A stretch of DNA of 64,000 bases from a virus. Made by a program: the position numbers and the translations under genes. The DNA lies in the IMG/VR virus record IMGVR_UViG_3300017963_000220, positions 1 through 64,000 of that record; one strand, 5' to 3'. The notes beneath the pieces were generated by a model. It was not told where the DNA came from. It saw nothing but the letters and a program-made list of their open reading frames with translations, and searched no databases. Positions 1,818 to 63,900 of the stretch are shown here, piece after piece. Position 1 is the first letter of the stretch. Each line of letters begins with the position of its first letter.

Positions 1818-1876
1818 GATCTGATGGAGATCACGGGGGGCCAGCAATGGCCCCCCGTGGGAGGTTCGATTCCTCT
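1818..1876 (+). ncRNA. tRNA-like element TLS4 (no clear closing stem)
   Basis: GATC-N7-GATC hairpin (1818-32). 12-bp hairpin with GCAA loop (1832-1859). T-arm GGAGG-TTCGATT-CCTCT (1860-1876). Confidence 0.45.
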
Positions 1877-1901
1877 ACAAGTCGCCGAAAGGAGGTAGCA
1901 T

Positions 1902-2168
1902 ATGGCTATCGTAAGAGACAAGAGGGTTGTGGAAACCAAAGATGACGGCATGAGCTTCAAGGCGTGGATGAGTATTATCAACGCCTTGGTAGGCAGGTTC
2001 TACGGCTGTTCGCTGTATGATCTCCCGGACATGATGTTTCGGGACGCATACGACGGTGGTGATTCACCGCTCGATTTCTTCAATGAGTACGTAGCAGAGG
2101 AGATCGAGTCCTCGGGCTTTGGCGATATCGTTGAGAATGTCGTATACAAGCCCAAGGAGGCAGCGTGA
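1902..2168 (+). CDS. hypothetical protein
   Basis: AAAGGAGG lies 6 nt upstream of the ATG. Confidence 0.6.
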   Translation: MAIVRDKRVVETKDDGMSFKAWMSIINALVGRFYGCSLYDLPDMMFRDAYDGGDSPLDFFNEYVAEEIESSGFGDIVENVVYKPKEAA

Positions 2169-2386
2169 TGGCTTGGCTAACAGTGGTTCCGGCCTATGGC
2201 CGAGATTACAAGTCGGCTAAGGCAGCCAAGGTGGATTGGGAGTCGGGAAAAGACTTTCAGATCGCCGACATCTCCAGCCCGGACAACGGCAGATACGTGT
2301 CAAAGAACGATCTCGAGGGGTCGAATATTGACACCGTAAAGGTCAGGTTCGGCAAGCTGGCGAAGGTTACCACGATCAAGGTCTAG
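2165..2386 (+). CDS. hypothetical protein
   Basis: GTGATG overlap with the upstream stop, suggesting translational coupling. Confidence 0.5.
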   Translation: MMAWLTVVPAYGRDYKSAKAAKVDWESGKDFQIADISSPDNGRYVSKNDLEGSNIDTVKVRFGKLAKVTTIKV

Positions 2387-3742: not shown

Positions 3743-4207
3743 ATGGCCCGTAGGAAGAAGAACAAGAACTCCAAGAAGCAAGCTCCGCCCCCTCCCCCGC
3801 CTGAAGAGGTAGAGGAGGAAGAAGCAGAGGAAGAGGAGGAAGCTGAAGAGGAGGACGAGGAAGAGGCCGAAGACGAAGACGACGAAGCAGAAGAAGAGGA
3901 GGAAGAGGAGGAAGAAGAGCCTCCGCCCCCTCGGAAGAAGCATCGTGGGAAAGTCTGGATCGATGAGCTTCATCTCATCCACCACGACGGAGCACTCTAT
4001 CTCTCTACCGATCCCCTGGCGTTCATCAAGGAATCGCTGGGCGATGTGGAGCCAGCAGAGCTGAATGATCAGCTCGAGGAGTTCAAGGTCGCGAGGCTCG
4101 TGCAATGGGACGAGCTAGAGATCGAGGACGGGGACGAGCTGGAATTCGCAGATATCACTGATGTCTGTGATATCCAGTTCTCCGACTGGGATCTCTCCTG
4201 GAAGTAA
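3743..4207 (+). CDS. polyacidic protein (~55-residue Glu/Asp tract)
   Basis: AGGAGGAG upstream. N-terminus MARRKKNKNSKK, then a PPPPPP-EEVEEEE...EEEE-PPPP tract. Confidence 0.6.
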   Translation: MARRKKNKNSKKQAPPPPPPEEVEEEEAEEEEEAEEEDEEEAEDEDDEAEEEEEEEEEEPPPPRKKHRGKVWIDELHLIHHDGALYLSTDPLAFIKESLGDVEPAELNDQLEEFKVARLVQWDELEIEDGDELEFADITDVCDIQFSDWDLSWK

Positions 4208-4226: not shown

Positions 4227-4268
4227 GGGGGTGGGGTGATCGAAGTCAGATCACCCCACCCCCATTTT
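4227..4268 (+). terminator. rho-independent terminator built on a GATC-N7-GATC hairpin
   Basis: 15-bp stem GGGGGTGGGGTGATC / GATCACCCCACCCCC, 7-nt loop, then ATTTT. Confidence 0.7.
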
Positions 4269-4738: not shown

Positions 4739-4830
4739 GACCACGAGAGCGGACTAACCAACCGCTCATGGGAGCACACAATTTCAGGAGTCGTTGTGTG
4801 ATCGCTGGTTCAAATCCAGCCGTGGTCACC
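4739..4830 (+). ncRNA. tRNA-like element TLS9 (four-arm cloverleaf-like, non-canonical)
   Basis: 7-bp acceptor GACCACG(4739-45)/CGTGGTC(4821-27) followed by A-CC. D-like arm AGCGG-N9-CCGCT. 7-bp stem with 12-nt loop (4775-4800). T-arm GCTGG-TTCAAAT-CCAGC. Confidence 0.6.
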
Positions 4831-4844
4831 GAAAGGAGGGTGTG

Positions 4845-5327
4845 ATGGGCATCCATAATAAAAAGACTAACCGGGAGTTGTTGGAGTTGTACTTCGACAC
4901 GGCGGCACAGCTCGTCGAGGTACAAAAGGATCTGGACGTAATAATCCAAGAATTCCAAGAGCGTGGAATAGCACAGATTGACCTAACAGCTCCGAAAATC
5001 TTTGTGGGCAACAACGGTAAAGGTTCTTTGGTGTCTGAGGATACCGAGGCAGAGGTAGCTTGGAAAGAGCTACAGGACGCTCGAAAGCACCGATCCAAAA
5101 AGACCCTCAAGAATGGGAAGAATGGGCAACCTACATTCCGTGGTCGTGGAGATATCTCGAAGAACATCTACGATCTACTTAGCTCAGGCAGAGCTACAGG
5201 AAAGGAACTAGCCGCGACCCTCGAGCTTACCCCGAAACAGGTGAGCAATTCTTTGTCGCTACTCAAGCGGCGGGGCTTGGTGGAGAAGACGCCAGGCTTT
5301 GACAGAGTGTGGCAAGTTACTGAATGA
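4845..5327 (+). CDS. putative winged-helix DNA-binding protein
   Basis: ORF 4794.. trimmed to ATG4845 after AAAGGAGGG. C-terminus GKELAATLELTPKQVSNSLSLLKRRGLVEK looks MarR-like. Confidence 0.5.
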   Translation: MGIHNKKTNRELLELYFDTAAQLVEVQKDLDVIIQEFQERGIAQIDLTAPKIFVGNNGKGSLVSEDTEAEVAWKELQDARKHRSKKTLKNGKNGQPTFRGRGDISKNIYDLLSSGRATGKELAATLELTPKQVSNSLSLLKRRGLVEKTPGFDRVWQVTE

Positions 5328-5333: not shown

Positions 5334-5392
5334 GCCCTGGGTGATCCTACTCAGATCACTGTGAGCCAGGTTCGGACCTGGCCAGGGCACCA
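5334..5392 (+). ncRNA. tRNA-like element TLS10 (D-armless mini-tRNA shape with encoded ACCA)
   Basis: 7-bp acceptor GCCCTGG(5334-40)/CCAGGGC(5382-88). Anticodon-arm-like GTGATC-ctactca-GATCAC (5341-59). CCAGG-ttcgga-CCTGG (5366-81). Then A-CCA (5389-92). Confidence 0.65.
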
Positions 5393-6319: not shown

Positions 6320-8053
6320 ATGGTACATATCAGAAGGCAGTCTGTATGGTGTTACATCGATATGGAACGAAGTAACCCTCGGGCAGTCAAATGGCTCCAT
6401 ATGGTCCTGACTATCTCTACACAAGCCTATGTTAGAGGCAAGCTAGAGTTCTACAAACTCCGGCTTTTCGATCTACGAAGAAAGCGCTTTCCCGCTGGGC
6501 TACTAGGCACAGCGTATAGGCGTTTGAAACGTAAAGGGTATGATGTACAGGTCATAGATGACCGACCTGATCCACCTAAGATCAAACCACTACCTAAGAG
6601 CTGCTCACACCTATATGACTACCAGAAGGCCGCCGTAAGGGCGTGTCTGAAGCGTAGACATGGCATCGTAAGGATCGCCACAGGTGGGGGTAAAACTGAA
6701 GTAGCGGTGGGCCTGGCAAGTCGGGTGAATTGTCCGACACTGTTTCTGGTCGATGAGCGCTCTCTGGTACAGCAAGCTCGAGAGCGTTGGGCCAAGATAA
6801 CAGGTAAGCCAGCCGGTATCATAGGAGAGGGCAGGTTTGAGCCTAACATGGAGTTCACAGTAGCCACGCTACAGACACTCCAACGACGGCTCAAGCGAGC
6901 AGATCCAGCGCTAGTCGCGTATCTACTCGAGGTAGGTTGTCTGATAGTAGACGAGGCGCACGTATTGGGCGCTAAGACCTACTACCGGACAGTCATGTCT
7001 ATCCCCAACGCATACTATCGTATTGGTCTATCAGCCACCCCCACGGGGCGGTCAGACCAGCGAGACGCTTATGTGATTGGGGCAATGGGACCTATCATCT
7101 ACAAAGCTACCATCGAAAAGTTGGTGGAACAGAAGAAGCTAGCAAAGGCTCTGGTGTTATTCTACCGATATCCTGGAGCGCTCAACCTGGAGGACTACTC
7201 AGCCAAGTGGCATCACTTGTACCTGATGGGTATGGTGAGAGAGGCCGCCAGGAATCGAGCTATCATCAGGATTTGCAAGATTACACCGAGGCCGATTCTG
7301 GTCTTCTTTGACAGGAAGGCACACGGGTGGATACTCAAGGATCTACTCGAGGAACAAGGCTACAATGTAGAAATAGTCTATGGCATCCATAAGGGAGAAG
7401 AACGACTCAAGCTGGCCCGTCAACTCGGGTCTGGCGAACTAGACGTATTGTTGGCATCAAAGGTTTTCAACAAGGGGGTGGACATCCCTGAGATTCGGTC
7501 GGCTGTGAACGCGGCTGGTTACAAAGCGGCGATCACATCCATGCAAAAGCTGGGACGACCAATGAGAGTCTCTGACGGTAAGGTGCAATTTGTGTACTGG
7601 GATACCGTTGATGACCACCATCCTACACTACTCCGACACTCGAGGTATCGAGCAAGGATCTATAAAAGAGAAGGTCTCGAGCTACGGCTTGTAGACTCTC
7701 TGAAAGAGGCCGTCGAAATACTGGGTGAGGTGGGCATGATTTACAAGGTTCCTTGGTACGCGCCAAGGGACTGGCTGGATCTAACCTACGAGGAGTTTGC
7801 AAATGGGTTGGGAACCGTGGTTGAGGACACAGGAGGAGAGGACAATGGCAGACGAGAAGAGGACATATCTCATCTCTCTAACGGATCGGGAATGCGCAGC
7901 GGTGCAAGAATTGGTCAGATACAGCCTCGATTCTCTCGCTGGGGTGGACAAAAACGACACCGTGGTAGAGAAATGGCGGAAGACCATCTTAGCCGTACAA
8001 GCAAAAGTCGACAACCCAAAGGTGGGGCTCGTTCAGGCGTCAGAAGCTCTTAG
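6320..8053 (+). CDS. SF2 DEAH-box DNA helicase
   Basis: Motif I ATGGGKTEVA, motif II IVDEAH, motif III LSATP, motif VI QKLGRPMR. TAGGAGG upstream. The last ~70 aa overlap the next gene out of frame. Confidence 0.85.
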   Translation: MVHIRRQSVWCYIDMERSNPRAVKWLHMVLTISTQAYVRGKLEFYKLRLFDLRRKRFPAGLLGTAYRRLKRKGYDVQVIDDRPDPPKIKPLPKSCSHLYDYQKAAVRACLKRRHGIVRIATGGGKTEVAVGLASRVNCPTLFLVDERSLVQQARERWAKITGKPAGIIGEGRFEPNMEFTVATLQTLQRRLKRADPALVAYLLEVGCLIVDEAHVLGAKTYYRTVMSIPNAYYRIGLSATPTGRSDQRDAYVIGAMGPIIYKATIEKLVEQKKLAKALVLFYRYPGALNLEDYSAKWHHLYLMGMVREAARNRAIIRICKITPRPILVFFDRKAHGWILKDLLEEQGYNVEIVYGIHKGEERLKLARQLGSGELDVLLASKVFNKGVDIPEIRSAVNAAGYKAAITSMQKLGRPMRVSDGKVQFVYWDTVDDHHPTLLRHSRYRARIYKREGLELRLVDSLKEAVEILGEVGMIYKVPWYAPRDWLDLTYEEFANGLGTVVEDTGGEDNGRREEDISHLSNGSGMRSGARIGQIQPRFSRWGGQKRHRGREMAEDHLSRTSKSRQPKGGARSGVRSS

Positions 8054-8191: not shown

Positions 8192-8256
8192 AGCCCTGGG
8201 TCGCTGGTAGTGGTACAGCGCACTGTGAGCTGGGTTCGGCCCCAGTCAGGGCTCCG
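8192..8256 (+). ncRNA. tRNA-like element TLS12
   Basis: AGCCCTG(8192-98)/CAGGGCT(8247-53). Hairpin CGCTG-N9-CAGCG (8202-20). CTGGG-ttcggc-CCCAG (8230-45). Confidence 0.6.
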
Positions 8257-8684: not shown

Positions 8685-8744
8685 AGCCCTGGGTGATCTG
8701 AGCAAGATCACTGTGAGCTGGGTTCGGCCCCAGTCAGGGCTCCG
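8685..8744 (+). ncRNA. tRNA-like element TLS13 (paralog of TLS10 and TLS12)
   Basis: AGCCCTG(8685-91)/CAGGGCT(8735-41). GATC-N7-GATC arm (8693-8711). Same tgtga linker and T-arm as TLS12. Confidence 0.65.
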
Positions 8745-9142: not shown

Positions 9143-9211
9143 ACTGGAGATTCCAGAATGATCTAAGCAAGATCATTAGAAAGGAGGGAAAACCTGCAAG
9201 AAAAGTATGGT

Positions 9212-10807: not shown

Positions 10808-11175
10808 CCGACGCAACACGTAGGTTCAAGAATCCGATGGGTCGTGACGTGACAGTCAAGGCCGAGCTTCGGATTCCGGACGGACGTAGCTTCCTTCGGG
10901 TAGCAGTCGGAAGGACCGATGATCGGAGTCCAATTGGGCTATCACGACAAGTATTCTTCGAGGATCTCCCCTTCGCCATTGAGGCACTCATCGACGTGTA
11001 CGAAGCCGGTAAGGAAAAGTACATTGAGCTTGAGACTGGGCGGATTCGCCGCAGCATCGAACGCGGACTCGACGAGGTGGAGTCTGTAGTCTCCCATAAT
11101 CGGGAGGACTGGTCAGGCAAGCTGATGACTATCAAAAAGGATATGTTGGGTCAACTTCCTGATGTGGAGTCATGA
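10573..11175 (+). CDS. hypothetical protein with Lys/Thr-rich N-terminus
   Basis: GAGGAAGGG upstream. N-terminus MATAKKTKATKKTTTKSTAKKK. Confidence 0.55.
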   Translation: MATAKKTKATKKTTTKSTAKKKVGTKAIAKEPVKEPVVAPETELASTKVDKGDNGASNKPISKDTFHRDGGWKSYELVADATRRFKNPMGRDVTVKAELRIPDGRSFLRVAVGRTDDRSPIGLSRQVFFEDLPFAIEALIDVYEAGKEKYIELETGRIRRSIERGLDEVESVVSHNREDWSGKLMTIKKDMLGQLPDVES

Positions 11176-12011
11176 CGGAGAGCTATCTTCGTAAAAAGTG
11201 TCCGTTCTGTTACAAGAACGTAGGCTCTGTGGGTTCACGAGAGAACGTCGCTATTGACCTTGGCAAAGGTGTGTACTTCTGTTGGCGCTGTGGGGCGTCA
11301 GGACGATTGAACAAATGGGCAGCTAAACAGCTAGATGTTCCAGAGTCCTATGGCTACGTTAGTGATCTGGATCAGATCATGTCAGACGAGCCTGTGAGGA
11401 AGGTATCGCAGTCCTCCTATCCGGAGGGCTATGTACCCCTCTACCCCTGGCGAGAAGTCAAGAGGAGTATAGTCCTACGACGGTACGTCAAGTACCTGAC
11501 TAAAAGGCATGTGACGCCCAAGCTCATGTCACAGTTCAAGCTTGGCGTTGTTCTGGACCCACCTAAAGAGCACTGGTATATGAGGGGTAACCTCATCTAT
11601 CCAGTACTTGACGGTGATAGAAAAGGCTATATCCGTAGACGCATAGACCGTGACGGTTACTTCAACTCACGTGGGCTTGGCCGGGAGGACGCTTTCTATA
11701 ACGGGCGTATTCTCAAGAAGGCAAAGCGTGTGTACGTGGTGGAAGGGCCTCATGATGTGTTGTCGATGGGTCTAGCTGGTTTGGGTACACTGGGAACCAG
11801 TGTTACAGACAAGCAACTCATACGTCTAGCTCACTTTCCTGGTGAGGTCATCTGGACCATGGACGGTGACGCCTGGAGGGTGTCAATGGTTCTGGCAAGA
11901 AGACTTCTTCTCCGAGGTAAACACTCGGGTTGGGTTAGAGTACCCCCTGGGCGCGACCCCGGTAAGCTGGGATTTGAGAAGGTAGCTTCACTCGACGTGC
12001 GCTATCTGTAG
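11172..12011 (+). CDS. DNA primase (zinc finger plus TOPRIM)
   Basis: CPFC...CWRCG zinc finger. TOPRIM VYVVEGPHDVLS and MDGDAW. ATGA overlap with the upstream gene. Confidence 0.75.
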   Translation: MTESYLRKKCPFCYKNVGSVGSRENVAIDLGKGVYFCWRCGASGRLNKWAAKQLDVPESYGYVSDLDQIMSDEPVRKVSQSSYPEGYVPLYPWREVKRSIVLRRYVKYLTKRHVTPKLMSQFKLGVVLDPPKEHWYMRGNLIYPVLDGDRKGYIRRRIDRDGYFNSRGLGREDAFYNGRILKKAKRVYVVEGPHDVLSMGLAGLGTLGTSVTDKQLIRLAHFPGEVIWTMDGDAWRVSMVLARRLLLRGKHSGWVRVPPGRDPGKLGFEKVASLDVRYL

Positions 12012-12172: not shown

Positions 12173-12862
12173 ATGCCGAAGAAGAAGAACGCGAAGTCGG
12201 AAGCTGCACAGGTCGCTGAGGAATCGGCGGCTCTCTATGAGGCCCTGATGGGACAGTACGAGGGGCTTTATGAGACTGGCGGGAAGGTCGCAGACCATCG
12301 AGTGGTCTTGACTACCCAGAGCGCCACGTCTCGCGCTTTCCAACTCCTGATTTCTGACTTGACCGCCGAAGAGGTAGTCGCCTGTCTCTCCGCCATCGGA
12401 GTCAACCTCGCAGAGGAGGACGAAGAGGAGGAAGAGGAAGAGGCTGAGGCCGAAGAGGAGGAAGAGGAGGACGAAGAGGAGGAAGAGGAAGAAGAAGAGG
12501 AAGAAGAAGAGGCAGAGGACGACGACGAGGAAGAGGACGAGGAAGAAGAAGAGGACGAGGAGGACGACGACGAGGAGGAAGAAGAAGAGGAAGAAGAGGA
12601 CGAGGAGGAAGAGGACGACGAGGAAGAAGAGGAAGAGGACGACGAGGCAGAGATCGAACTCAAGGCTGGGACCTTGAAGAAGATCAAGAAAGCCAAGTCC
12701 GCTGACGCAGTGGCCAAGATGGTTTTGGCCGATATCGACATCGATGATGAAGATCTGTTGACGGCTGTCCTCGTCGAGCTTCGTGACGGAAAGGTGGCCC
12801 CCGCGCTCAAGGGTAAGAAAGAGGGCGGGCTCAAGAAGGTCGCCAAGAAGGCACTGAAGTAA
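12173..12862 (+). CDS. polyacidic protein (~110 consecutive Glu/Asp/Ala)
   Basis: AAGGAGGG upstream. N-terminus MPKKKNAKSE. The E/D run spans ~12415-12650. Followed by a strong terminator. Confidence 0.65.
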   Translation: MPKKKNAKSEAAQVAEESAALYEALMGQYEGLYETGGKVADHRVVLTTQSATSRAFQLLISDLTAEEVVACLSAIGVNLAEEDEEEEEEEAEAEEEEEEDEEEEEEEEEEEEEAEDDDEEEDEEEEEDEEDDDEEEEEEEEEDEEEEDDEEEEEEDDEAEIELKAGTLKKIKKAKSADAVAKMVLADIDIDDEDLLTAVLVELRDGKVAPALKGKKEGGLKKVAKKALK

Positions 12863-12879: not shown

Positions 12880-12928
12880 GGGTACCCCCCAGGCTGGAGG
12901 AATCTGGCCTGGGGGGTACCCTTTTTTA
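12880..12928 (+). terminator. rho-independent terminator
   Basis: 15-bp stem GGGTACCCCCCAGGC / GCCTGGGGGGTACCC followed by TTTTTTATT. Confidence 0.85.
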
Positions 12929-16031: not shown

Positions 16032-16624
16032 AACTCAAGGTCAAGAAGAAGCGAAAGCCCAAGCCAAAGAAATCCTTCTGGGAGCAACTTCAGGATTTTC
16101 CTTCTGAGGAAGCTACACAGGACGCGCTCAGAGCGATTCCGGATGACATGGCTGAGGCTCTTCAGCTTGAGCCAGCATTATTTCTTGTAGCCACGACGCG
16201 TCTAGCTGGTCTCATGAGCCACTGGTCTACTCGAATGGCCTACGCCAAGGGTAGATTCTCAGCAGCGAAACACGCTCGAGAGATTGGGCTCGAGGCGATG
16301 AAGTCTGACAACCGTCAGATACTCAAGCGCCTGTATGAGAAAGTTACAGAGCCTATGATAGGCGAGAGGGCAAAAGCCAGTGAGGAGTACGCCAGGCTGT
16401 GTCTAGCCGAGGTTGAGGCTGAGACTGACTACATACGCATCAAGGGTTTGGTGGATACGATAGCCACCAAGCGGGAGTCTCTCCGGATCATTTCCTTTTA
16501 TCTCAAGCCTGAGATGGATATAGCATCCGGTTCATATACCGTACCTGATCTGAATCAGATTACCCAGCCATCTGTCCTACAGTCCCTTTTGGAGCAGAAC
16601 CAGGAAAAAATGAAGAAAAAATGA
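16028..16624 (+). CDS. hypothetical protein with KLKVKKKRK leader
   Basis: GTGA overlap with the upstream stop. N-terminus VKLKVKKKRKPKPKK. Confidence 0.5.
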   Translation: MKLKVKKKRKPKPKKSFWEQLQDFPSEEATQDALRAIPDDMAEALQLEPALFLVATTRLAGLMSHWSTRMAYAKGRFSAAKHAREIGLEAMKSDNRQILKRLYEKVTEPMIGERAKASEEYARLCLAEVEAETDYIRIKGLVDTIATKRESLRIISFYLKPEMDIASGSYTVPDLNQITQPSVLQSLLEQNQEKMKKK

Positions 16625-16669: not shown

Positions 16670-16680
16670 AGGAGGGTCGC

Positions 16681-50645: not shown

Positions 50646-50652
50646 ATCACCC
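50630..50652. repeat. GATC-N7-GATC inverted repeat (8-bp arms)
   Basis: GGGTGATC-tgtttta-GATCACCC. It spans the portal stop TAG. Confidence 0.9.
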
Positions 50653-52137: not shown

Positions 52138-52150
52138 TCGGAATCAGATC

Positions 52151-54394: not shown

Positions 54395-54502
54395 GTCGAC
54401 ACGTATTCAAGAAGGCAAAAGCGTCTGATCCAGAGCTGGAGTTGAACCTTGACGAGGAGAACTCAGACTGGATCAGAACGCTACGCCGAAAACGGAGGGA
54501 CC

Positions 54503-57500
54503 GTGCCAAAGAAGGACCTGTCAAAGTACGTCAAGGTCAAGGTTCCGGTAACGAAGGGACCTAAGAAAGGTACATATACTACCGTCTATAAGAAGAAGGC
54601 CGAGCTAGAGAAGGAGAAGAAGCAAAAGAAGGCTCCTAAGGAGTCGAGCTTCTTCATGGACGTGGCTAAGTATCTCAAGATGGTAGATCTTCATGACGCT
54701 ATCTATGATGTTGCGGTCCACGCTCCGGCGGATATAGATATACCTTCTCGTCTAAGTGACCACGAGGCAGTGTTACTTTTAGACGAGACTACGTATCCTT
54801 CTTATATGCGTCACATGACACATATTCTTCGTCAGCTACGTGATAAGACTTACACATCCAAGGAACAGCTTGCCCATGAAAAGCTAGCGTTTAGTTGGAA
54901 GGTTGAGGCTGATAAGCTGCACACTAGGGCTTCACATGAGACACATAAGCGCTTGAACAAGCTCTTAGACAAGCTCTGGGATGCTGCTGAAGGTACCGAG
55001 GACGAAGAACCAGCGAAACCTCTCAGTGTCAAGGCTCCAAAGGAACCCAAAAAGTTCACAAAGGCTGGCATACGTAAGTACGCCAGAGAGCTATATACGT
55101 CTCTCACAGAGTTGCAAAAGCTCGCCAAGGATAGAAACAACCACATGAAGTCCATAACCTTGGAAGGTTCACTTGCCAAGGCTGTACTTCACGCCTATTC
55201 CTATGGTGGACCCAAGGGTAGGGTTCATCTGAAGGATGGCACTGTCATACGCTCTGAACACATTGGTAACCACACGGGTCGACGTAACGCTGATCGCCCT
55301 CCAGGTACCGTAATATGTGCATATTACGATGTTACTCCTCTGGAAAGTGCCAAGAAGTACCTTTCTGGTTACGCCGTTTTTCACATGGATGACGTGGAGA
55401 GCATAGAGGTGGATAACGTCACGTCTATGGACTACATGATGAGTCCTATGGGTATCGCTGGTGATATGGCTTCCTTCGCTGGTGGTTGCTACGTTGGTCA
55501 ACATCTCTTGGCGGACTGGTACGGCTCGGCTAATGGTCCAGCCTCCAAAGTCTTCGCCCATGCCTTGGAGCTGATGGGAGCTGTCCCTAAAGCCTACAGG
55601 TGGAATCGTGGTGAAGCCAAGTATGAGCCTGTGAGCAAAGCTATCAAGGGTAAAGGCGAGGCTACCTTTGACGCTGTGAGATACGCGAAGCAACGTTATC
55701 ACGTGACACAAGAACTCCTAGAGGGTAAGAGCAAAACCTGGACGATGTACCGGGGACTGAAGGGTGAAGTAGCTCAAGGTATCTCAGACCATTTCCTCGA
55801 ACATGGTGAGAACGCCTCTGTTGCTCTGAACTGTAGGACATTGGAGTCTTGGGCTACAGATAAAGGTGTGGCAAAAAACTTCGGCCAAACCGTATTGGTT
55901 GCTCAGGTTCCTAATGAAGCTGTGTTTGTGGACCCTCGAGTCTCCGCGATTATGACAGACTTTCGTGAGTCTGAAGCGCTTGTCGTGCAGATGAATAAGG
56001 ATAAGAAGAAGGGTAACCTTCCTCGCTTTGTAGTCGACGATTTGTTAGAGGAGAAGGAGACTTCCTGGGGTGATACCTACGCAGAGTATAGCGTGAAGCT
56101 TCGAGGTGAGAAGCCTCGGGTGCCTGTGGCGGAGCCTAAGAAGGTAACGATCAAGTCTTTGGAAGCTCGTCGTAAGGAACTTCAGAAGATAATGAAGAAG
56201 CAAGACGACATCATGGATAAGCTTCACGACAAACATGGCGATGATCATGCCGACTGGCCAGAAGAGGCTCAAGAAGCTTTCGAGGAGGCTGAAGACACCT
56301 GGTACGCAGCTGATGAGGAATCGAATCATCATTTCAATAAGATCTTCAAGATGCAGGAAGCTAACAAGAAGAAGAAGGCTACCAAGGCCGCTGCTAAGAA
56401 GAAGAAAGAGGAATCTAAAGCCTCTTCAGCAAATCTCAAGAAGCTTCAGAAGAAGATGAAGAGTCTTCGAGCCGATAAAATGGCGGCGGAAAAGATCATG
56501 AACAAGATTGAAAATAAGCATGGTAATCGGCCAGATGGATCTTATATAGGTAAGGACAAGTGGCCTAAAGCTGCTGTTGAAGCTCATAACGAAGCGGAAG
56601 CTGAGTGGTATGATCTTGATGATCAGGTAGCAGATTTAGCGGAAGAGATGTCTAAAATGAAACTCCAGTTGAAAGCCAAGAAAGGCATCACACACTTCTT
56701 CAAGAAGAGTGATCGGGGTAAGATCAGAAAGCGTATCGCCTATCAGCGTAATGGGAAGACCCATTACCGTTGGCAGTGGGTAAACGCTCCGACAGGAGAA
56801 ACCGCTCCAGTCCCAGGACAGGATGAGGACTACCGTACACATCTTGCCTATGTGTTCACCGAGGGGCGAGAAGCCTACACGAAGAACGTACTCGAGAAGG
56901 TCAAAGAGTTTCATGAGGAGCTACGAGCAAAAGGGAAACCTATTCCTGAAACCAGGGCTCAGGCTCAAGCGAAACGTACCGCTAAACGCCAGGCTGCTGT
57001 GTTACCTCGAGACATGGGACGTCTTTATTCTCTGGCTCCCATGGTTCGTCACAAGATCGCTCGAGAGACTGACGCTATAGCGAGCAAGAATCAGGGGAAG
57101 TGGCTTCGACCTGTGGGTGTGGATACTATGGGCTACTCTGTCAAGAAGGTAGGGAAGCGCGTGCATGTCCGCGACCGCTCAGGTCGAAGGCAACAGTCAT
57201 TCGCTACCATGGGCGAGGCCATAGAACACATTTACCAGGAGACCGGCCCTCGGGCTGAGGAGATAGCTCACCAAGAGCGTCGACAGGGCAAAAAGTCTAA
57301 GACCAAGCCTCTCAAGATTGAGAAGGTCAAGACCAAGGAGAAGCAGGATGTTCATGTGGAGCCCAGACGACGAGAAGATACGAAAAAGCGTAAAGTGGTC
57401 AGTACACGTGTCGCGTTGCGACGAATCAAAGAGGGCTCCTGGGGACAAGTGGGCGGCCATGATGTCTACAGGAACCTTAGTGGCGGGTACGAACTGCCGG

Positions 57501-57823
57501 GTGGCGTCAAAGCTAAGAATCTCGCTTCAGCCGTCAAACACATGTCGGAATTGAAGGTCAAGAAGCCTTCTAAAGAAGAGACGGCAAAGTCTGGGACCGC
57601 TGGGGCGATCTCAGTAGGATCACGAATCAGCTTTGGCCGTTTTGGTCAGACTGTTACAGGCAAGGTAACCAAGGTCACAAGGAAGGGTAGTCAGGTCATC
57701 GTGACCATCGGTGGTACTGACTATCCAATGGCATCACATAGGCGAGTGAAGTTCCTGAAAGGGGAGCGTACAGCTCGTCTGACATTCACGCCAGATGGAC
57801 AGCTAGTCCAGATTTGGCACTAG
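54503..57823 (+). CDS. very large virion-module protein with ADP-ribosyltransferase-like segment
   Basis: ORF 54449..57823. Start uncertain (TTG54449 or GTG54503 after ACGGAGGG). R-S-ExE pattern: MYRG, ESWAT, ESEAL. Confidence 0.6.
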   Translation: MPKKDLSKYVKVKVPVTKGPKKGTYTTVYKKKAELEKEKKQKKAPKESSFFMDVAKYLKMVDLHDAIYDVAVHAPADIDIPSRLSDHEAVLLLDETTYPSYMRHMTHILRQLRDKTYTSKEQLAHEKLAFSWKVEADKLHTRASHETHKRLNKLLDKLWDAAEGTEDEEPAKPLSVKAPKEPKKFTKAGIRKYARELYTSLTELQKLAKDRNNHMKSITLEGSLAKAVLHAYSYGGPKGRVHLKDGTVIRSEHIGNHTGRRNADRPPGTVICAYYDVTPLESAKKYLSGYAVFHMDDVESIEVDNVTSMDYMMSPMGIAGDMASFAGGCYVGQHLLADWYGSANGPASKVFAHALELMGAVPKAYRWNRGEAKYEPVSKAIKGKGEATFDAVRYAKQRYHVTQELLEGKSKTWTMYRGLKGEVAQGISDHFLEHGENASVALNCRTLESWATDKGVAKNFGQTVLVAQVPNEAVFVDPRVSAIMTDFRESEALVVQMNKDKKKGNLPRFVVDDLLEEKETSWGDTYAEYSVKLRGEKPRVPVAEPKKVTIKSLEARRKELQKIMKKQDDIMDKLHDKHGDDHADWPEEAQEAFEEAEDTWYAADEESNHHFNKIFKMQEANKKKKATKAAAKKKKEESKASSANLKKLQKKMKSLRADKMAAEKIMNKIENKHGNRPDGSYIGKDKWPKAAVEAHNEAEAEWYDLDDQVADLAEEMSKMKLQLKAKKGITHFFKKSDRGKIRKRIAYQRNGKTHYRWQWVNAPTGETAPVPGQDEDYRTHLAYVFTEGREAYTKNVLEKVKEFHEELRAKGKPIPETRAQAQAKRTAKRQAAVLPRDMGRLYSLAPMVRHKIARETDAIASKNQGKWLRPVGVDTMGYSVKKVGKRVHVRDRSGRRQQSFATMGEAIEHIYQETGPRAEEIAHQERRQGKKSKTKPLKIEKVKTKEKQDVHVEPRRREDTKKRKVVSTRVALRRIKEGSWGQVGGHDVYRNLSGGYELPGGVKAKNLASAVKHMSELKVKKPSKEETAKSGTAGAISVGSRISFGRFGQTVTGKVTKVTRKGSQVIVTIGGTDYPMASHRRVKFLKGERTARLTFTPDGQLVQIWH

Positions 57824-57835: not shown

Positions 57836-58111
57836 ATGGGTGAGTACGATGAGGTTGTGAAGAAACACCTGGGTCCAGGTCCGTACAAGACGGGCGAGTT
57901 GCGTCCTGGGAAGGCTCTTGAGGGTGGCGACGTTCGTCAGACCACAGAGAAGCCTCTCACCAAGCTCGAGCTTACGCAAGGACAGCTCGAGCGGATCAAG
58001 GATCACATGGCTGACGGTAAGAGCTACGAAGAGGCTGTGTCTCGCGTAGCAGGCGTTCCTGTCGAGGAGCTGGAGAAGGGTTCCTACATCATTCAGAGGA
58101 AACATGGTTGA
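57836..58111 (+). CDS. hypothetical protein
   Basis: AGGAGGGCTGAGAG upstream. Confidence 0.5.
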   Translation: MGEYDEVVKKHLGPGPYKTGELRPGKALEGGDVRQTTEKPLTKLELTQGQLERIKDHMADGKSYEEAVSRVAGVPVEELEKGSYIIQRKHG

Positions 58112-58781
58112 CTCATGTGTGCTGCTATTGAGCGGTGGTCTTGATTCGGCTGTCTGTCTGTACCAGCTACTTGAACAGGAGGTAGATGTCTACCCTTTGT
58201 TCGTTCACTATGGACAGGCAGCCGAACAAGAGGAGTACCAAGCAGTACTACGTCTTATTTCTCAGGCTAGGGAACGCTTTGACACTGAGGTGATCAATCT
58301 CCAACACGTATCCATGCAAATGATGGGTTCGTACCTGACTTTTGATCAACCAGTCTGGTATGACCTGGACGACCCTAAAATGCTGGATGGTGAGTACGTG
58401 AAGGTGTCCCCTACATATGTACCTGCTCGTAACACAATTTTGGCGCTGTTGGGGTTCCAGGTAGCCTACAAATACGACCTGGATGCTGTAGCGCTCGGTG
58501 TGAAGGTCGTCAACGAGGCCCTTTATCCTGATTGTGGTACTGAGTGGGCCGTCGCCATGCAACATATGTTCAATCTACACACATTGGGAGGTAGAAAAGA
58601 GGTTCGTCTCTTGACCCCCATCGCAACGGCTCGGCGTTTTGAAGTCCGGAAAATGGCCAAAGAGTACGGTGTACCAGAGGATCTCCTTATGAGTTGTCTT
58701 CTCCCTATAGATGGGGAACCTTGTGGTAGGTGCTCGGGCTGTCTGGAAGAAGAAGATGAAAACACCGAGAAAAAAGAGTGA
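58104..58781 (+). CDS. queC: 7-cyano-7-deazaguanine synthase
   Basis: PP-loop LLLSGGLDSAV. C-terminal Zn cluster CLLP...CGRCSGC. Confidence 0.85.
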   Translation: MVDSCVLLLSGGLDSAVCLYQLLEQEVDVYPLFVHYGQAAEQEEYQAVLRLISQARERFDTEVINLQHVSMQMMGSYLTFDQPVWYDLDDPKMLDGEYVKVSPTYVPARNTILALLGFQVAYKYDLDAVALGVKVVNEALYPDCGTEWAVAMQHMFNLHTLGGRKEVRLLTPIATARRFEVRKMAKEYGVPEDLLMSCLLPIDGEPCGRCSGCLEEEDENTEKKE

Positions 58782-58796
58782 TCTGAATCAGATCAC
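58778..58796. repeat. GATC-N7-GATC inverted repeat (near-perfect 19-bp palindrome)
   Basis: GTGATCTGAATCAGATCAC. It contains the queC stop TGA. Confidence 0.9.
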
Positions 58797-58848: not shown

Positions 58849-59991
58849 ATGCCCCGAAATAGGAAGCCATTTCGCCATAAATGGCCCAAGGGTTGGCGTC
58901 CGAGAGTATTCCGTGGTGTTGATACTGGTGCTCCTAAGGAGTTTTTCCAGGGAGCGGTGAATTCTGTGGTTCGTGATAGGACTCCAGAGGTAAACACAGT
59001 GCTGGCTGTAGGTCAGTCCCTAGGTCATACCCACGCTATATTCAAGGCTCATCCTAACTGTTGTCCTTTATGCCAGGCCCATGATGGGCGTCGTCAACGA
59101 TTGGCGACTGTCCTGACGTGGAAGTATGCCCTACCACACCCCAATTGTTGGTGCAATTGGGAGACGGAGAAGGTGGTGAGAAAGGCTGACATGTTAGCGA
59201 ACGCTCCCTTACTGGACACTAGTAAGGAGCAGCGTATAGTACACATTTTCAACAAGGCTCATAGTAAACACTCCCATTTGGTCCTACGCCAGGGACCGTC
59301 TGGCAAGAAACGCTGGATGAAAGTTGGCGAAGGCGGACCTGGGGAGGCTCGAGTCAAGGCGGTAGCCGAGAGGAGGGCTCAAAAGGATGAGCCGATACGT
59401 GAAGCGCTCCGTAAAGAGCGTAAGGCAGAACTTGAAGCTAGTCTTCAGCGCCTCAAGGCGGAGGAAGCTAAAGGAAAAGCTCCTCAGAAGGCAGCTAAGA
59501 CAGAACAAAAGCCTAAGAAGAAGGCTGAGGAACCAAAGATAGAAGTTCACGAGGATGCCAAGAAAGAGCTGAACGAGTCTGTGGATGATCTGAGAAAGAT
59601 CGATCCTGGCCAGGAGGGTGAGGTTCGAGGTCACAAAGTTCAACGTCATCCCGACGGCAAAAGATTCAAGGTCGAAGGCGTCGTGGCTCATGGCTTCAAA
59701 GCTGCTGCGTTCATTATGATGGGTATTGAGCGCGTGTCGGCTAGCTATGGTCAAACAATGGGCGGGACGATAGGTCCCGGCGCTGAGATGGCTCAAGGTG
59801 GAGAAGGTACCCGTACTATTCAGCAGGCTGGAGCGAAGACAACAGGTGTCACCGCTCAGATGGCTGAGAAGGTACGCGCCTCACGCCAAGAGAAAGCAGC
59901 AAAGCGCCAGGCTAAGACCGACGAGAAGAAGAAAAAGAGTAAACCGAAACGGAAACGCTCGAAGAAAAAGAGCAAGGGCAAAGAGGGGTAG
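58849..59991 (+). CDS. MuF/SPP1 gp7-like head morphogenesis protein
   Basis: CPLCQAHDG...PHPNCWCNW motif. Basic C-terminus. Confidence 0.65.
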   Translation: MPRNRKPFRHKWPKGWRPRVFRGVDTGAPKEFFQGAVNSVVRDRTPEVNTVLAVGQSLGHTHAIFKAHPNCCPLCQAHDGRRQRLATVLTWKYALPHPNCWCNWETEKVVRKADMLANAPLLDTSKEQRIVHIFNKAHSKHSHLVLRQGPSGKKRWMKVGEGGPGEARVKAVAERRAQKDEPIREALRKERKAELEASLQRLKAEEAKGKAPQKAAKTEQKPKKKAEEPKIEVHEDAKKELNESVDDLRKIDPGQEGEVRGHKVQRHPDGKRFKVEGVVAHGFKAAAFIMMGIERVSASYGQTMGGTIGPGAEMAQGGEGTRTIQQAGAKTTGVTAQMAEKVRASRQEKAAKRQAKTDEKKKKSKPKRKRSKKKSKGKEG

Positions 59992-60900
59992 GTGGACATG
60001 GGCCGCGATGGTAATCCTCAAGTGTTCGTTGGGAGTGGTTATCCCGATCCCGTGAACCTTCGGCAGGGTATAGAGATACTCACCGATGTTTTCGGTAGAG
60101 AACCAGATATCCAAGGACCAGAGCATCCAGATTCACCTCCTTGGGTCTTGTCTGACCCCGAAGAGATCATGGATGACTTCCGCACTCTGGTGAAGTCTTC
60201 CGTGAATGTCTTTATCGCTGGTGGTGGTACAGGAGCCGCTCGGGTGACACGTCATTTCAGATCCCATAAGACTGCCAAGTTGTCGTCTACAGTCTGTGGT
60301 AGCTCTGATGGCTTTGTCTATCCTCTGATGGCGTGGTTGTGGGGGCTCGATGCCTACTATGGGCCGAATGTCGCTGAGGCGTTCGACTCAGAGGTGGCGT
60401 CAGCCGTTCGCTCTCATGACTCGCTCAGGTGCAGTGACACGTACTCTACGGTCATAGCCACGTGTTATGACTGTAGTGAAGACTATACGGTGTTACCTGT
60501 CTGTGCTGGCGTGTTACGCCAGTGTTCTAATGTCATCACTGGGGAGCTGATATCCAGGCTCGTTGAGGAGTCACATCTACTTTTGCTCGAGGACAACTAT
60601 CCAGCCTCTCCCATGGGGCTGATCGCTTTCTACGAAGACGTAACGGGTCTTTGGGATATTATCAGGGCGACGGCGGCAGGAGAGGGCGCTATAGGTGTTT
60701 GTACTATATACGATCACTTTGGTGTCTCTCCGATGGGAATACTCCGTAATGCCTTGGACCACATGAACTTCCCAGAGACCCCTGTCTTCTACGGTGTAAA
60801 CTTTGGTCATAGGGACGGGCCGCTCTCAGTGATCAAATTTGGATCAAAATGGTGCCTCTCCTACTTTGAAGAGGCTGGCCTTTTGGTTACGGTGGAGTAA
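59992..60900 (+). CDS. hypothetical virion-module protein
   Basis: GTG start after GAGGGGTAG. Ends at TAA 60898-60900. Confidence 0.55.
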   Translation: MDMGRDGNPQVFVGSGYPDPVNLRQGIEILTDVFGREPDIQGPEHPDSPPWVLSDPEEIMDDFRTLVKSSVNVFIAGGGTGAARVTRHFRSHKTAKLSSTVCGSSDGFVYPLMAWLWGLDAYYGPNVAEAFDSEVASAVRSHDSLRCSDTYSTVIATCYDCSEDYTVLPVCAGVLRQCSNVITGELISRLVEESHLLLLEDNYPASPMGLIAFYEDVTGLWDIIRATAAGEGAIGVCTIYDHFGVSPMGILRNALDHMNFPETPVFYGVNFGHRDGPLSVIKFGSKWCLSYFEEAGLLVTVE

Positions 60901-60906
60901 ACAGCG

Positions 60907-63900
60907 GTGAAGGTATACTACTTCAGAATGAGGAAGGCGAAGAAGCCATCAAAGATGCCTGGTCTCGTTCCTATGAGAGTCACCGTTGGAAAGCGTGGCT
61001 CGAGGACTCATTTAGTTCTCCGTGTCGGACCTTCCGGCAAGAAACGCTGGATGAATCCACAGGCACAGGACTTAGGACGGGATCACCCGGTCTTCGGACA
61101 TCCTGACGACTATCGCTCCTACTACGGCATAATTTACATAAAGGAAGAGGATGTGGAGAAAGCCTTCAGTTTCGCTGAGGCTGCACGTCTATCCCTACGC
61201 GCCTTCGCTGAATGGTTACTCGCCAACAAGCCCATGAAGGTTGGAACCGACCGCTTCAAAGACCCGGAGACGGGCAAGACGGAGTTCCGAGCTGTCATGG
61301 CGAAGCCTGAAGACATATCACTCGAGAAGTGTGATGGCTTAGGCGGGCAGGTCAATGAGAATGTCCTGGAGTACCTCAAGGGTAAGGTTGTAACCATGCT
61401 CTCTGAGGACTTCAGCGAGAGCCTGGAAGGTTTCAGTACGAAGGACTTCGACGAAGCAATAGCCAAGATGGTGGATAAGCTGACCGCTCGGTCGGCTGGA
61501 GCCATGTTTGGTTTCTACGAAGCTGAGAAGAACCGAGCCTATGGTGGACCCCAGGAGGGCGAGTCTGAGCAAGACTTCAAAGAGCGCTGGAAAAGTATAC
61601 GAAGAAACATCGCGAAGATGTTACGCTGGCACGCTAGGAGACTAGCGTTAGCCTACCGTGATGATCTGAGTGAGATCATTCCTTACCAGGCGCACCCGTT
61701 CACAGATGAGATGAGTGAAGGCCCAGAGCTACCAGCGACGGCTCGAGGTGAGTATTTCGCTTTGACACGTAAGGCAGCACAGGGCGATTTGATGATACCT
61801 ATCCGTAAGGGTAAGGTTCAACAGTCACTCTTCGGTAAGATTGACAGAAAGACAGGCAAAAGGTTCCTCACAAAGGAGGAGCTAGACACGTTGATAGCCG
61901 AGCTGATGGGCTCGCGAGTGAAAATATTCGATGAACAGTCAGGCAACGCTATAGTCTACCCAGTCCCCATCAAAGGTGACGTTCCGGGTAAGTACGCGAA
62001 GAATGTGTGGCAGTTTGGTCTAGTGGATGTAATTGTTCCTATCACCATGGGTATCATGAGGAGACATGGTGTTACCTCCCAAGAGCTTCAACGCTGTCTA
62101 GGCGCAGCTTTGGTGGGTATGTTGGAACGCCTGGGTCAGTATACAGCCGCGCCTGGTACTGAGAATTCAGGGCAGAAGTTCAAGGTCTATCAAGTCGATC
62201 CCGCCTTAGCTCTCATGGAGTACGTAGCCAAGTGGGCTGTACGTCATGTGGAGACGGAGGCAGTCAACATACGCGGTGAGCGTGAAGGTGATGAGTGGCG
62301 AGCCCGTATGACTGTAGGTCAGCGTTACGGTGGCCAACAGGGTGACTTCCGGCTCATGAGGGCAATATACGAGGAGGCCCAGCGGCGTAGTGTCGCTATG
62401 GGTATCTATGAAGAGCCTTCACCCCAATTTATGCACGAGGTTGGTAAGGAGTTCCGAGGTTCAATCGAACGCCTGGTCGACTTGTCAAAATGGGAGGATA
62501 AACCTGACGATGCCTGGGAAGAGTGGCTGAAGGAAAAGATTACTAAAGGTATCTACACCGTAGGCTATGATCCCCATGCCGGTGAGGACGACGAAGAGGA
62601 ACAAATTCACATTTCAACTGGTCAGATTTATCGAGACGCTCAAATTATGTCTCACATTGGCTCGCAGCGTCCTAAGACGGTAGGCCAGATTGGAGAGATG
62701 AGTCATCAGATTCGTCGCTATGAACGTGATGAACATGGCAACTTCGTCAGAGGCTTTCGAGACTTCTCCACTGGACATATCAATCCAGACCCCATGGGGC
62801 CACTGGTACTCATGGAGGAGTTCAAGAGAGACAAGGATGGCACCTTTCTCCGTGAGGAGACTGGAGTCACGCGGAAGAAGGAAGACCTCAAGGTTGGTAC
62901 AGTCTACCAGGCGCAGGACGGTACAGTCCGCGTCCGGACCTCGGAAGGTTCGGAGGAAACTGTCATAGCCAATCCGTACAATGTACATTGGCGTGAGACC
63001 AGAGGCGGCATGGTTGAGAAGACGGGTGACCTAGTACCTAATCCTGATTCCTTTACCTACGTTCGTGGTGGTACGTCTATTTCGGCTGCTCAGATTGAGA
63101 AGGCTGAGGTTCAGGCCAAGCTTCGGCTCGAGGCTTTGACTCGAGCCGCTGAGGCTGGCTGGCTCACAGCAGAAAAGGCGCGAGCTTTCGATATGTTGTA
63201 CTCTCGTGGTACAGCTTTGAGCCCTCATCAGGAATATTATGATGACACACGGCACATCAATAAGCTCGAGTCTGAGTACGCCAAGCTCAAGACGCTTTTG
63301 GAGCCACTGTCCCTCAAGTCTTACTATGATAAGCACTATAGAGCCGCCAAAGGCCACAAGCCGTCAAAGGATGAGACGTTTCAGAAGCCTAAGAAACTCT
63401 CACTCATCGAGCAGAACAAAGCCAAGCTGATAGCTCAGAACATCGCGGCTGGGAAGTCTGGTAGTGATCTGAGACGGATCAAAGCCCAGGCTGAAGCCGA
63501 GCACAAGGCTAACATTGAACGCTATATTGAGCTGGCTAGCGAACTCCGGGGGCTTTCTCCTACAGTTCATTTTCCTGATGCTGCTCCACCGTCTATGTGG
63601 ACCGAGGGTATGTTGAATTACCCTGGTGTACCTGTAGACGATTCTGGTCGACCGATGCGCGAGCTACTTCTGTCAGCGGAAAACTTCGCTGATGAGCCTG
63701 AGCGACATCTGGGTGGTAACTTGTCTTTTAGTATTGTGAAGCAGATAGGTAGGCCGCCTCCGCGTGTTCAGGAGACCAGTGTCAAGAAACGCCGCGCCAA
63801 TGAAAACTTTGACGTGGCTTTCCATATGGCTCTCTGCAAAGAGCTGGAGAGCCCACGGTATAAGCGTACCGTGGTGACGAGTATCGACGATCCAGAAGAC

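Follow-up and report, generated by a model that had tools for sequence, protein, structure and literature searches.

The 64,000-nucleotide stretch of DNA studied here (the window; positions 1 to 64,000 of IMG/VR virus record IMGVR_UViG_3300017963_000220) is a segment of a phage genome with all genes on the + strand. It carries 45 copies of a palindromic site built on two GATC cores seven nucleotides apart (GATC-N7-GATC), spread at regular distances through genes and the gaps between them. Our data strongly support the view that this signal is selected at the DNA level and kept against coding constraint, and the array, not the fixed positions of its members, is conserved across a clade of uncultured phages. 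We tentatively read the copies as parS-like loading sites for an orphan ParB/Noc-family protein encoded at 17757-19070.

A single GATC spacing is enriched

The window contains 320 GATC sites, and exactly 45 pairs of them are separated by seven nucleotides, the same number that a preliminary description of this DNA had counted by eye. Every other spacing from N0 to N40 yielded only 0-5 pairs. The chance estimate is 1.6 pairs per spacing (320^2/64000), and 200 simulations under a third-order Markov null gave a mean of 1.7 N7 pairs (maximum 6), which places the observed excess at ~25-fold. In 200 synonymous-codon shuffles within genes, 3.8 ± 1.7 intragenic copies were obtained (maximum 9), versus 28 observed. 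The spacing histogram and the codon-aware shuffle had both been proposed as checks in the preliminary description, and the signal at N7 stood out in each. Chance or base composition as the cause was ruled out by the Markov and synonymous-codon controls. Single GATC sites outside the pairs showed no enrichment (~230 vs. ~245 expected). Among inverted 4-mer pairs at any spacing, GATC-N7-GATC ranked top by far, and after masking of the copies no second dyad family was left among the inverted 4-, 5- and 6-mer pairs of the window at any spacing.

The earlier coordinates were exact for 43 of the 45 copies; the remaining two were corrected from 38043 to 38044 and from 52569 to 52559. The copies are listed below with their window positions, followed by five variants with one core mismatch (ORF, open reading frame; L numbers are loci of related phages).

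1818-1832: copy TGATCTGATGGAGATCA, gene boundary/intergenic
2520-2534: intergenic
4238-4252: intergenic; at the centre of a G+C-rich 15-bp stem with TTTT behind it, the sole terminator-looking copy
5343-5357: intergenic; first arm of the two-hairpin tRNA-like element 5334-5388
6569-6583: helicase ORF 6320-8053, phase 0
8695-8709: intergenic; first arm of tRNA-like element 8685-8741, whose sister 8197-8253 has a non-GATC arm
9160-9174: intergenic, upstream of a DnaB-like gene
11364-11378: primase-like ORF 11172-12011, phase 0; position common to L115 and L113
13178-13192: PolA ORF, phase 0; position common to L115
14245-14259: PolA ORF, phase 2; position common to L115
17275-17289: ORF 16663-17556, phase 0; 480 bp upstream of the ParB gene
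19364-19378: gene end; TGA stop codon within the spacer
21424-21438: SbcD/Mre11-like ORF, phase 0
23109-23123: SbcC-like ORF, phase 0; position common to L113
24729-24743: ORF 24544-24963, phase 2
25226-25240: ORF 24960-25316, phase 2
27886-27900: gene boundary; TGA of TGATC is the stop of ORF 27504-27887
30262-30276: FolE2 ORF, phase 2; long extended stem
31639-31653: ORF 31576-31893, phase 0
32346-32360: ORF 32340-32801, phase 0
32888-32902: ORF 32801-33535, phase 0
33785-33799: fills the gap from a TGA stop (33784-33786) to the MT-A70 ATG (33800); GGAG in the spacer is the Shine-Dalgarno sequence
34376-34390: 4 bp past the MT-A70 stop; nominally ORF 34323-34796, phase 2
34811-34825: intergenic
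35297-35311: TGA of TGATC is the stop of ORF 34849-35298
36557-36571: ThyX ORF, phase 2
37035-37049: ThyX ORF, phase 0; position common to L019:6510
37407-37421: ORF 37389-37721, phase 0
38044-38058: ORF 37954-38586, phase 0
39697-39711: ORF 39493-40107, phase 0
40755-40769: ORF 40126-40923, phase 2
42952-42966: TGA of TGATC is the stop of ORF 42645-42953
43551-43565: ORF 42984-43832, phase 0
48160-48174: large terminase ORF, phase 0; private position, the copies in relatives' terminase genes lying elsewhere
50634-50648: portal gene end; TAG stop in the spacer; predicted 11-bp stem
52136-52150: exactly between TGA stop 52135-52137 and the next ATG, 52151
52559-52573: ORF 52151-54394, phase 0
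54137-54151: ORF 52151-54394, phase 0; position common to L019:16346
56711-56725: 1124-aa ORF, phase 0
57607-57621: 1124-aa ORF, phase 2
58780-58794: best copy, GTGATCTGAATCAGATCAC, a 19-bp perfect palindrome; its TGA is the QueC stop
59587-59601: ORF 58849-59991, phase 0
60831-60845: ORF 59992-60900, phase 2
61663-61677: large ORF running from 60901 off the window end, phase 0
63466-63480: same large ORF, phase 0
133-149: one-core-mismatch variant TGATTGGTATCAGATCA, directly after a 13-bp tandem array
16546-16562: one-core-mismatch variant TGATCTGAATCAGATTA, fills a 3-kb array gap
39252-39268: one-core-mismatch variant TAATCTGAATAAGATCA
47201-47217: one-core-mismatch variant TAATCTGAATCAGATCA, gene boundary, inside the longest gap
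49526-49542: one-core-mismatch variant TGATCTGACTCAGTTCG

The site is a 17-bp palindrome with nearly inviolable cores

The consensus of the window copies is T-GATC-(T/G)GA-N-TC(A/C)-GATC-A, a 17-bp palindrome in which the GATC centres are 11 bp apart and both lie on one helical face; TGATCTGAATCAGATCA is an example of motif-bearing DNA. T precedes the motif (-1) in 37/45 copies and A follows it (+1) in 39/45, with both present in 31/45. The preliminary description had pointed to these flanks, to a biased spacer and to palindromes of 19 bp; the spacer bias was seen again as (T/G)GA-N-TCA, and a perfect 19-bp copy lies at 58778-58796. Spacer and flank preferences were alike in intergenic, phase-0 and phase-2 copies and strongest without coding constraint, the boundary and intergenic copies having the T flank in 15/15 cases and the A flank in 15/15. 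Because the preferences occur in all three classes, they are part of the signal and not codon bias.

Covariation was examined over 101 copies from four genomes, covering the spacer and eight flank positions. Pairing of mirror positions was at the level of marginal base frequencies, and the sole departure was a marginal signal at -2. Compensating changes in the copy at 27886 had earlier been taken as support for pairing; they are anecdotal, given that no covariation was found over the 101 copies. Mirror positions without covariation point to a duplex DNA site for a symmetric dimer, not to a selected hairpin. The two halves of the site show equal and independent preferences, and the asymmetry that marks stoperators was not seen.

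The GATC cores are almost all-or-none and nearly inviolable. Sites with one mismatch among the eight GATC positions numbered 35 vs. 36 expected, and only ~5 of them have the right flanks and spacer (133, 16547, 39253, 47202, and 49527); these lie in larger gaps of the array and include the three one-mismatch copies noticed before (found at 133-149, 16547, and 47202). A CcrM/GANTC reading of the spacer was rejected: complete GANTC was present in 10/45 copies, the expectation for independent positions, and GANTC was not enriched in the window overall (264 vs. ~245 expected).

The signal is maintained inside genes and shapes proteins

Thirty copies are intragenic, 21 in phase 0 and nine in phase 2, in line with the earlier statement that about two thirds lie inside ORFs in two frames. 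The other 15 are at gene boundaries, a ~5-fold enrichment given that ~6% of the DNA is non-coding. In phase 0 the motif reads GAT-Cnn-nnn-nnG-ATC and encodes D-[LPHQR]-x-x-I; in phase 2 the peptide is x-I-x-x-R/G-S. A copy in the third phase would have its T flank read as part of a TGA stop, which rules that phase out. This TGA is a real stop codon at 27886, 33785, 35297, 42952, 52136, and 58780, and in two of these copies (33785 and 52136) the next ATG begins right after the right arm. Long genes hold internal copies, and short genes carry copies at their ends.

The array has left an imprint on the encoded proteins. D[LPHQR]xxI peptides occur 39 times vs. 14.2 ± 3.9 in residue shuffles (roughly threefold), and the motif itself spells 20 of these 39. 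In nine aligned ortholog sets, motif codons mostly match D-x-x-x-I or similar peptides residue for residue. The portal peptide DPAEIN, for example, is written GAT-CCT-GTT-GAG-ATC in one lineage and GAC-CCT-GCT-GAA-ATC in another. New sites form at pre-existing peptides by synonymous or near-synonymous change; elsewhere residues are altered. Only 2 of ~25 sites in these sets fall in indels, so the copies are not insertions, and mobile elements of the REP/MITE type were ruled out by the same alignments. The preliminary description had left open whether a DNA or an RNA signal was kept despite coding; the codon shuffles and ortholog alignments bear out the DNA part of that claim.

The copies are regularly spaced

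Gaps between the window copies had a coefficient of variation (CV) of 0.62 vs. 0.98 for random placement (P = 5e-4), and the minimum gap of 372 bp was not reached in any of 20,000 random placements (P<5e-5). The longest gap extends from 43551 to 48160. When 140 gaps from seven loci in four lineages were pooled, the CV was 0.60 vs. 0.98 (lowest of 5,000 random sets, 0.76), and five gaps were shorter than 300 bp vs. 30 expected. Density is about one copy per 1.0-1.4 kb, with an exclusion zone of ~300 bp. Most simply, selection acts on density and spacing, and gene boundaries are favoured just because a site costs least there; the useful reach of each site would be several hundred bp to ~1 kb. 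Between 31639 and 38058 the motif is about twice as dense as elsewhere (11 copies in 6.4 kb), in a region of small genes that include those for MT-A70, an SLT-domain protein and ThyX.

The array is conserved across a phage clade

Related loci L019/L020, L025, L028/L029, and L113-L118 carry the array at 12-23 copies per 17-22 kb. No relative with the common replication/ParB module lacks it; large terminases (TerL) are 49-68% and ParB proteins 46-63% identical to those of the window. A relative of 87.4-87.8 kb (TerL 68% identical) carries 17 copies in the 21.8 kb surrounding TerL and another 12 in the 21 kb surrounding ParB, a lineage with 48% G+C has 18 around TerL and 14 around ParB, and an 87-kb lineage with 57-58% G+C (TerL 49%, ParB 46%) has 20-23 copies per 21-22 kb. 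Distant TerL relatives hold 0-3 copies (L026, 53% identical and with a different genome layout, and L030-L032 at 42-46%). A few positions are common to the closer lineages (13178, 14245, 11364, 37035, and 54137); most differ, and distant lineages share none. Conservation in related phages had been named as a check beforehand, and the outcome is that the array is kept while positions turn over. The exact consensus 17-mer occurs in IMG/VR as singletons only, apart from one related contig.

A ParB/Noc-family protein is the leading candidate reader

Four loci of the window bear on what may read the site:

17757-19070, + strand: orphan ParB/Noc-family protein, candidate binder, with ParB_N (GFRRFEA, ENLREDM), HTH_ParB (HTH, helix-turn-helix) and a lysine-rich tail
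4794-5327, + strand: winged-HTH (ArsR/MarR-like) protein, alternative candidate binder; a motif copy follows its stop
25690-27503, + strand: DpdA-like transglycosylase (25690-26685) and HTH-less ParB_N protein, DpdB-like (26682-27503), part of a 7-deazaguanine module
33800-34372, + strand: MT-A70 adenine methyltransferase with motif copies on both flanks

The 17757-19070 protein matched Pfam families ParB_N (2e-12) and HTH_ParB (1.7e-9) and scored 72 bits with TIGR00180 (cut-off 58 bits). A profile built from it matched the Spo0J/ParB/Noc/KorB structures 6SDK, 1VZ0, 7OL9, and 8QA8, with E-values down to 7e-20. The ParB fold and the HTH are thus both present, and the CTP-binding motifs GFRRFEA (GxxRxxA) and ENLREDM (ENLxRE) are kept in seven homologues. 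Residues Q217, S218, S221, and D222, invariant across homologues 43-87% identical, are taken to lie in the putative recognition helix, and the HTH deviates from the canonical ParB HTH. A ParB was found in every array-bearing lineage whose replication module was examined. A palindromic site, as in ParB-parS systems, is also at hand, the 17-bp palindrome being the only over-represented dyad motif in the window; 17 bp is close in size to the sites of this family (16-bp parS, 13-bp KorB, 14-bp Noc). Canonical parS (TGTTNCACGTGNAACA) offers the protein no other site, matches in the window being at chance level: a single one-mismatch match, TGTTACAGGTGTAACA at 38371-38386, lies inside an ORF, is not conserved in the L019 ortholog and has a chance of ~0.01-0.02 per window. 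Surveys of the ParB fold list many orphan phage ParBs without assigned sites (PMC12704722).

By elimination and from this co-occurrence, the copies are possibly parS-like loading sites for the 17757-19070 protein, a reading that we hold at somewhat less than even confidence. The preliminary description had offered a parS-like array for either of two ParB-like proteins. The first proved to be a ParB/Noc-family member with an HTH, and an array for it holds up best among the readings suggested there. The second (26682-27503) was dropped, as it has the N-terminal domain only, lacks an HTH, adjoins the DpdA-like gene and looks DpdB-like; it is unlikely to be a sequence reader. DpdB next to DpdA is a known arrangement (PMC10164549), and HTH-less ParB activators of phage thymine dioxygenases have been described (PMC13229309).

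Several observations weigh against the parS-like reading. The Pfam scan covered 76 ORFs (~10 small ORFs were left out), and no ParA-type family was found among those scanned; the 17757-19070 protein is therefore an orphan ParB, if anything. Other DNA-binding proteins besides the winged-HTH protein at 4794-5327 may be encoded among the ~10 small ORFs. Co-occurrence with the array is just as good for the Dpd/Que module and many other genes, and since DpdA and ParB homologues were found only inside the clade, the co-occurrence of ParB and array is inseparable from phylogeny; an attempt to separate ParB from the Dpd module by phyletic pattern failed, as both families are confined to the clade. ParB-family sites known so far come in 1-70 copies per replicon and mostly accept mismatches, and 0.7-1 site/kb with near-absolute GATC cores is outside the experience with this family. 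Enzymes and methyl-readers, more typically than HTH operators, demand GATC cores as strict as these.

The copies most likely form a genome-wide spaced array of one double-stranded DNA site, in which a symmetric dimer would read two successive major grooves. They are placed preferentially where a site costs little, with TGATC doubling as a stop and GATC-ATG as start context. If the copies are parS-like, each would act in the manner of dispersed parS or KorB operators and load nucleotide-gated clamps that slide a limited distance, and with evenly spaced sites the protein could spread over all of the replicating genome so as to compact or protect it. Alternatively, it might escort DNA-modifying enzymes, such as the neighbouring methylase or the DpdA/DpdB-like pair. 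A further proposal, which we regard as unlikely, is that in this lytic clade the orphan ParB-type clamp, gated by nucleoside triphosphate, coats the genome and shields the DNA or hands it over to the DpdA/DpdB-like pair and MT-A70, with 7-deaza or methyl groups, which the G and A of the GATC cores may carry in the major groove, letting the clamp distinguish new from finished DNA.

In the 87.8-kb relative, an MT-A70 gene lies ~500 bp downstream of the ParB gene (L115, 10001-12357). One PHROG profile (phrog_21315) spans ParB_N and MT-A70 as a single protein, which indicates that the two are functionally coupled in some phages.

Other readers and mechanisms

The evidence at the DNA level (covariation, cores, shuffles, spacing, and flanks) would fit any symmetric dimer equally well. 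The copies might thus be operators of a different dimeric phage or host DNA-binding protein, either the winged-HTH protein at 4794-5327 or an unannotated small protein, acting as a global silencer or timer, comparable to the Cluster A mycobacteriophage stoperators or the Cluster O repeats. The winged-HTH gene ends 16 bp before a motif copy, many ORFs of the window have no family assignment, and the authors who described comparable repeats in Cluster O mycobacteriophages likewise infer a dimeric binder (PMC4351075). We nevertheless consider this explanation rather doubtful: two thirds of the copies are intragenic and bear no fixed relation to sigma-70-like promoters (which in three 20-kb scans were below shuffle expectation), operators tied to transcription units are not expected to be evenly spaced, and the winged-HTH gene did not turn up in those regions of the relatives that were covered. 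A methylation-linked device, in which a host or phage reader (SeqA-like, MutH-like or of another kind) recognises the paired GATC once it is hemimethylated or methylated, so that newly replicated phage DNA is marked, would account for the essential invariance of GATC next to flanks that are only preferred. The phage encodes its own adenine methylase, and N7 puts both sites on one helical face, within the spacings used in SeqA binding assays (PMC2691817). SeqA contacts GATC alone, yet the unconstrained copies have T and A flanks in 15/15 cases and a palindromic spacer; single GATC sites are not enriched, and no SeqA-like family was found in the ORFs scanned. The preliminary description had suggested the motif as a target of MT-A70. 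That suggestion was abandoned, as the co-occurrence expected of a recognition site is absent: 80 other viral contigs with a 49-57% identical MT-A70 (845 kb) lack the array, hold only 11 N7 pairs in total and show no link between this family and the array, and among isolates the closest homologues, from Stx2 and Vibrio phages, are adenine methylases of a generic kind. A methylation device is accordingly improbable. Use of the sites as recognition or entry points for the 7-deazaguanine machinery, whether as groups of modified G (each consensus site has six GA steps) or as processive start points, appears quite improbable, even though the window has a full preQ0 pathway with adjacent DpdA-like and ParB_N genes, the DpdA/ParB_N module recurs in two further array-bearing lineages and QueC in three. 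ParB-fold partners do activate DNA-modifying enzymes (PMC10164549, PMC13229309), and phage DpdA enzymes are reported to target GA (PMC10484667). Modification targets, however, explain neither the enrichment nor the even spacing, a whole preQ0 pathway suggests modification in bulk and not at ~65 sites per genome, a domain for reading sequence is missing from the DpdB-like protein, and the bacterial DpdA motif CxGCxG is unrelated (PMC10164549).

Two further mechanisms can hardly be upheld. Targets of a site-specific nickase or recombinase, as in T5-like or phiKMV-like phages, could serve as spaced entry points for recombination-dependent replication; kilobase-scale regular spacing, the presence of RecA and SbcCD-like genes, and an enzyme-like, near-absolute core specificity agree with this. 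We see very little chance of it, as known phage nick motifs are asymmetric and strand-specific, nicking of a palindrome would hit both strands at an 11-bp offset and break the genome into pieces, and the array has no linked nuclease gene. We give the same small probability to hairpins of RNA or single-stranded DNA by which transcripts would be punctuated, stabilised or terminated. With genes all on one strand every copy is transcribed, 15 copies lie at gene boundaries, long extended stems occur at 4238, 30262, and 50634, and two copies supply one arm of a tRNA-like element. However, the basic stem of 5 bp has little stability (median -6.2 kcal/mol for 25 nt), and neither stem extensions nor spacer covary, the sequence being conserved and not the pairing. 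An association with promoters or terminators was rejected, since promoters were below shuffle level and a single weak terminator-like match on the + strand overlapped a copy in the three scans; a clear terminator at 12880-12921 has no motif, and T tracts are almost absent on the + strand. Rfam and tRNA (ARAGORN) scans gave no match for motif copies or tRNA-like arms, and the sister tRNA-like element at 8197-8253 has a non-GATC arm. RNA hairpins, raised in the preliminary description, are thus not upheld as a general explanation, and the anticodon-arm geometry noted there is fortuitous, an arm of 5 bp happening to go with a spacer of 7 nt.

The tRNA-like elements are repeated intergenic structures in their own right (5334-5388, 8197-8253, and 8685-8741, also 557-635 and 1495-1573). 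They consist of a closing stem, two hairpins and a T-loop-like sequence GGTTCG(A/G), sit just upstream of Shine-Dalgarno sites, and may be tRNA-like processing signals.

Genome context

Landmark genes of the window include:

12929-15490, + strand: PolA fused to a uracil-DNA-glycosylase-like (UDG-like) domain
47230-49128, + strand: large terminase
49137-50645, + strand: portal

Further genes encode helicases, RecA and SbcCD-like proteins. TerL is at most 34% identical to that of any isolate, with best matches in SPO1-like Bacillus phages; no close GenBank relative of the phage was found, and a scan of genome contigs for the host gave no match. The family A DNA polymerase carries its UDG-superfamily domain at the N terminus, and this fusion is kept in L113-L115. 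A full 7-deazaguanine DNA-modification set is encoded at 25331-30373 and 58104-58781 (QueD, DpdA-like, HTH-less ParB_N or DpdB-like, QueE, FolE2, and QueC), and relatives have two or three QueC paralogues adjoining structural genes. A very large ORF after the portal region (54449-57823, 1124 aa) contains a DRAT-like ADP-ribosyltransferase domain; another starts at 60901 and leaves the window at 64000 (>1033 aa), and the relatives' genes there encode 1416-1866 aa.

Two genes contain Glu/Asp-rich low-complexity tracts with GAA/GAG/GAC repeats (3743-4207 and 12173-12862). Together with the hypersaline-sediment sample names of relatives, these tracts hint at a halophilic host. The source samples include the hypersaline-sediment metagenomes 3300017991 and 3300018080. 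At window positions 1-123, the 13-bp unit CCTGGAGCCCGGC is repeated perfectly in tandem ~9 times, and a one-mismatch motif copy comes immediately after; these repeats may mark a genome end, be iterons or reflect an assembly edge. The tetranucleotide TTAA is absent from the 64 kb at 52% G+C vs. ~200 copies expected. Among the loci examined (L020, L028, L029, and L114-L118), it is also absent from five and is depleted in the 48% G+C lineage (13 and 26 copies). It may have been purged as a G-free restriction site beyond the protection of 7-deazaguanine.

Relation to known dispersed sites and significance

The closest precedent is the 17-bp dyad repeat TGTTCGG-N3-CCGAACA of Cluster O mycobacteriophages (Corndog and relatives), which has no assigned function; Corndog has 34 invariant copies and three one-mismatch copies in ~70 kb of coding and non-coding DNA (PMC4351075). 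Both systems have a 17-bp palindrome with invariant arms and a variable centre in at least 30 genome-wide copies that are not tied to promoters, and both occur in apparently lytic phages with an orphan ParB-like domain protein and no ParA. The Cluster O repeat differs in sequence and belongs to an unrelated phage lineage; about one third of its copies are in coding DNA and they are denser at one genome end, whereas two thirds are intragenic and the spacing is even here. Paired GATC cores and a measurable reshaping of proteins are found here only.

Palindromic, dispersed sites of the ParB family are also known as parS, as OB sites of KorB on RK2 and as NBS sites of Noc on the B. subtilis chromosome. 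They share with the present array an orphan ParB-fold protein with nucleotide motifs and HTH, a palindrome of similar length and dispersed copies, and a sliding-clamp mechanism like that of KorB and Noc would make the distance between sites matter. The array differs in a 10-100x higher density, a mostly intragenic placement and its GATC cores; the recognition helix differs from that of canonical ParB, and neither canonical parS nor, in the ORFs scanned, ParA was found. On plasmid RK2, KorB is itself a ParB-family protein with dispersed sites (PMC11790492). Stoperators of Cluster A mycobacteriophages likewise comprise tens of copies of one short site enriched between genes. They are asymmetric, oriented with transcription and bound by a prophage repressor (as summarised in PMC4351075), whereas the site described here is symmetric and no repressor, integrase or orientation is evident. 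SeqA binds pairs of hemimethylated GATC, with N7 among the assay spacings (PMC2691817), and the two GATC sites ~one helical turn apart on one face are a common feature. It needs GATC only and tolerates many spacings, whereas one spacing and a 17-bp palindromic context have been selected in this phage. Since canonical parS, ParA, stoperator asymmetry and RNA structure were all not found, the array is not a member of any of these defined families. What is new relative to the known kind is the GATC cores, higher density, intragenic placement, measured regular spacing and protein imprint.

Dispersed dyad repeats are known in at least one phage group, Cluster O, and have never been explained; the present clade is a stronger and cleaner case, with an array conserved across lineages whose proteins are only ~50% identical. 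Its features point to a process along the whole DNA molecule with a reach of ~1 kb, and the motif is a practical marker for the clade in metagenomes. With a 17-bp site defined and one candidate protein standing out, direct in vitro tests of the hypothesis are possible without phage culture. If the link to ParB fails, the sites still define a GATC-reading factor. If it holds, the ParB clamp mechanism would extend to whole-genome coverage in viruses and may connect to DNA hypermodification; and if the clamp does coat the genome as proposed, the ParB switch would have been put to a new use, and dispersed dyad repeats in phages would have their first functional explanation.

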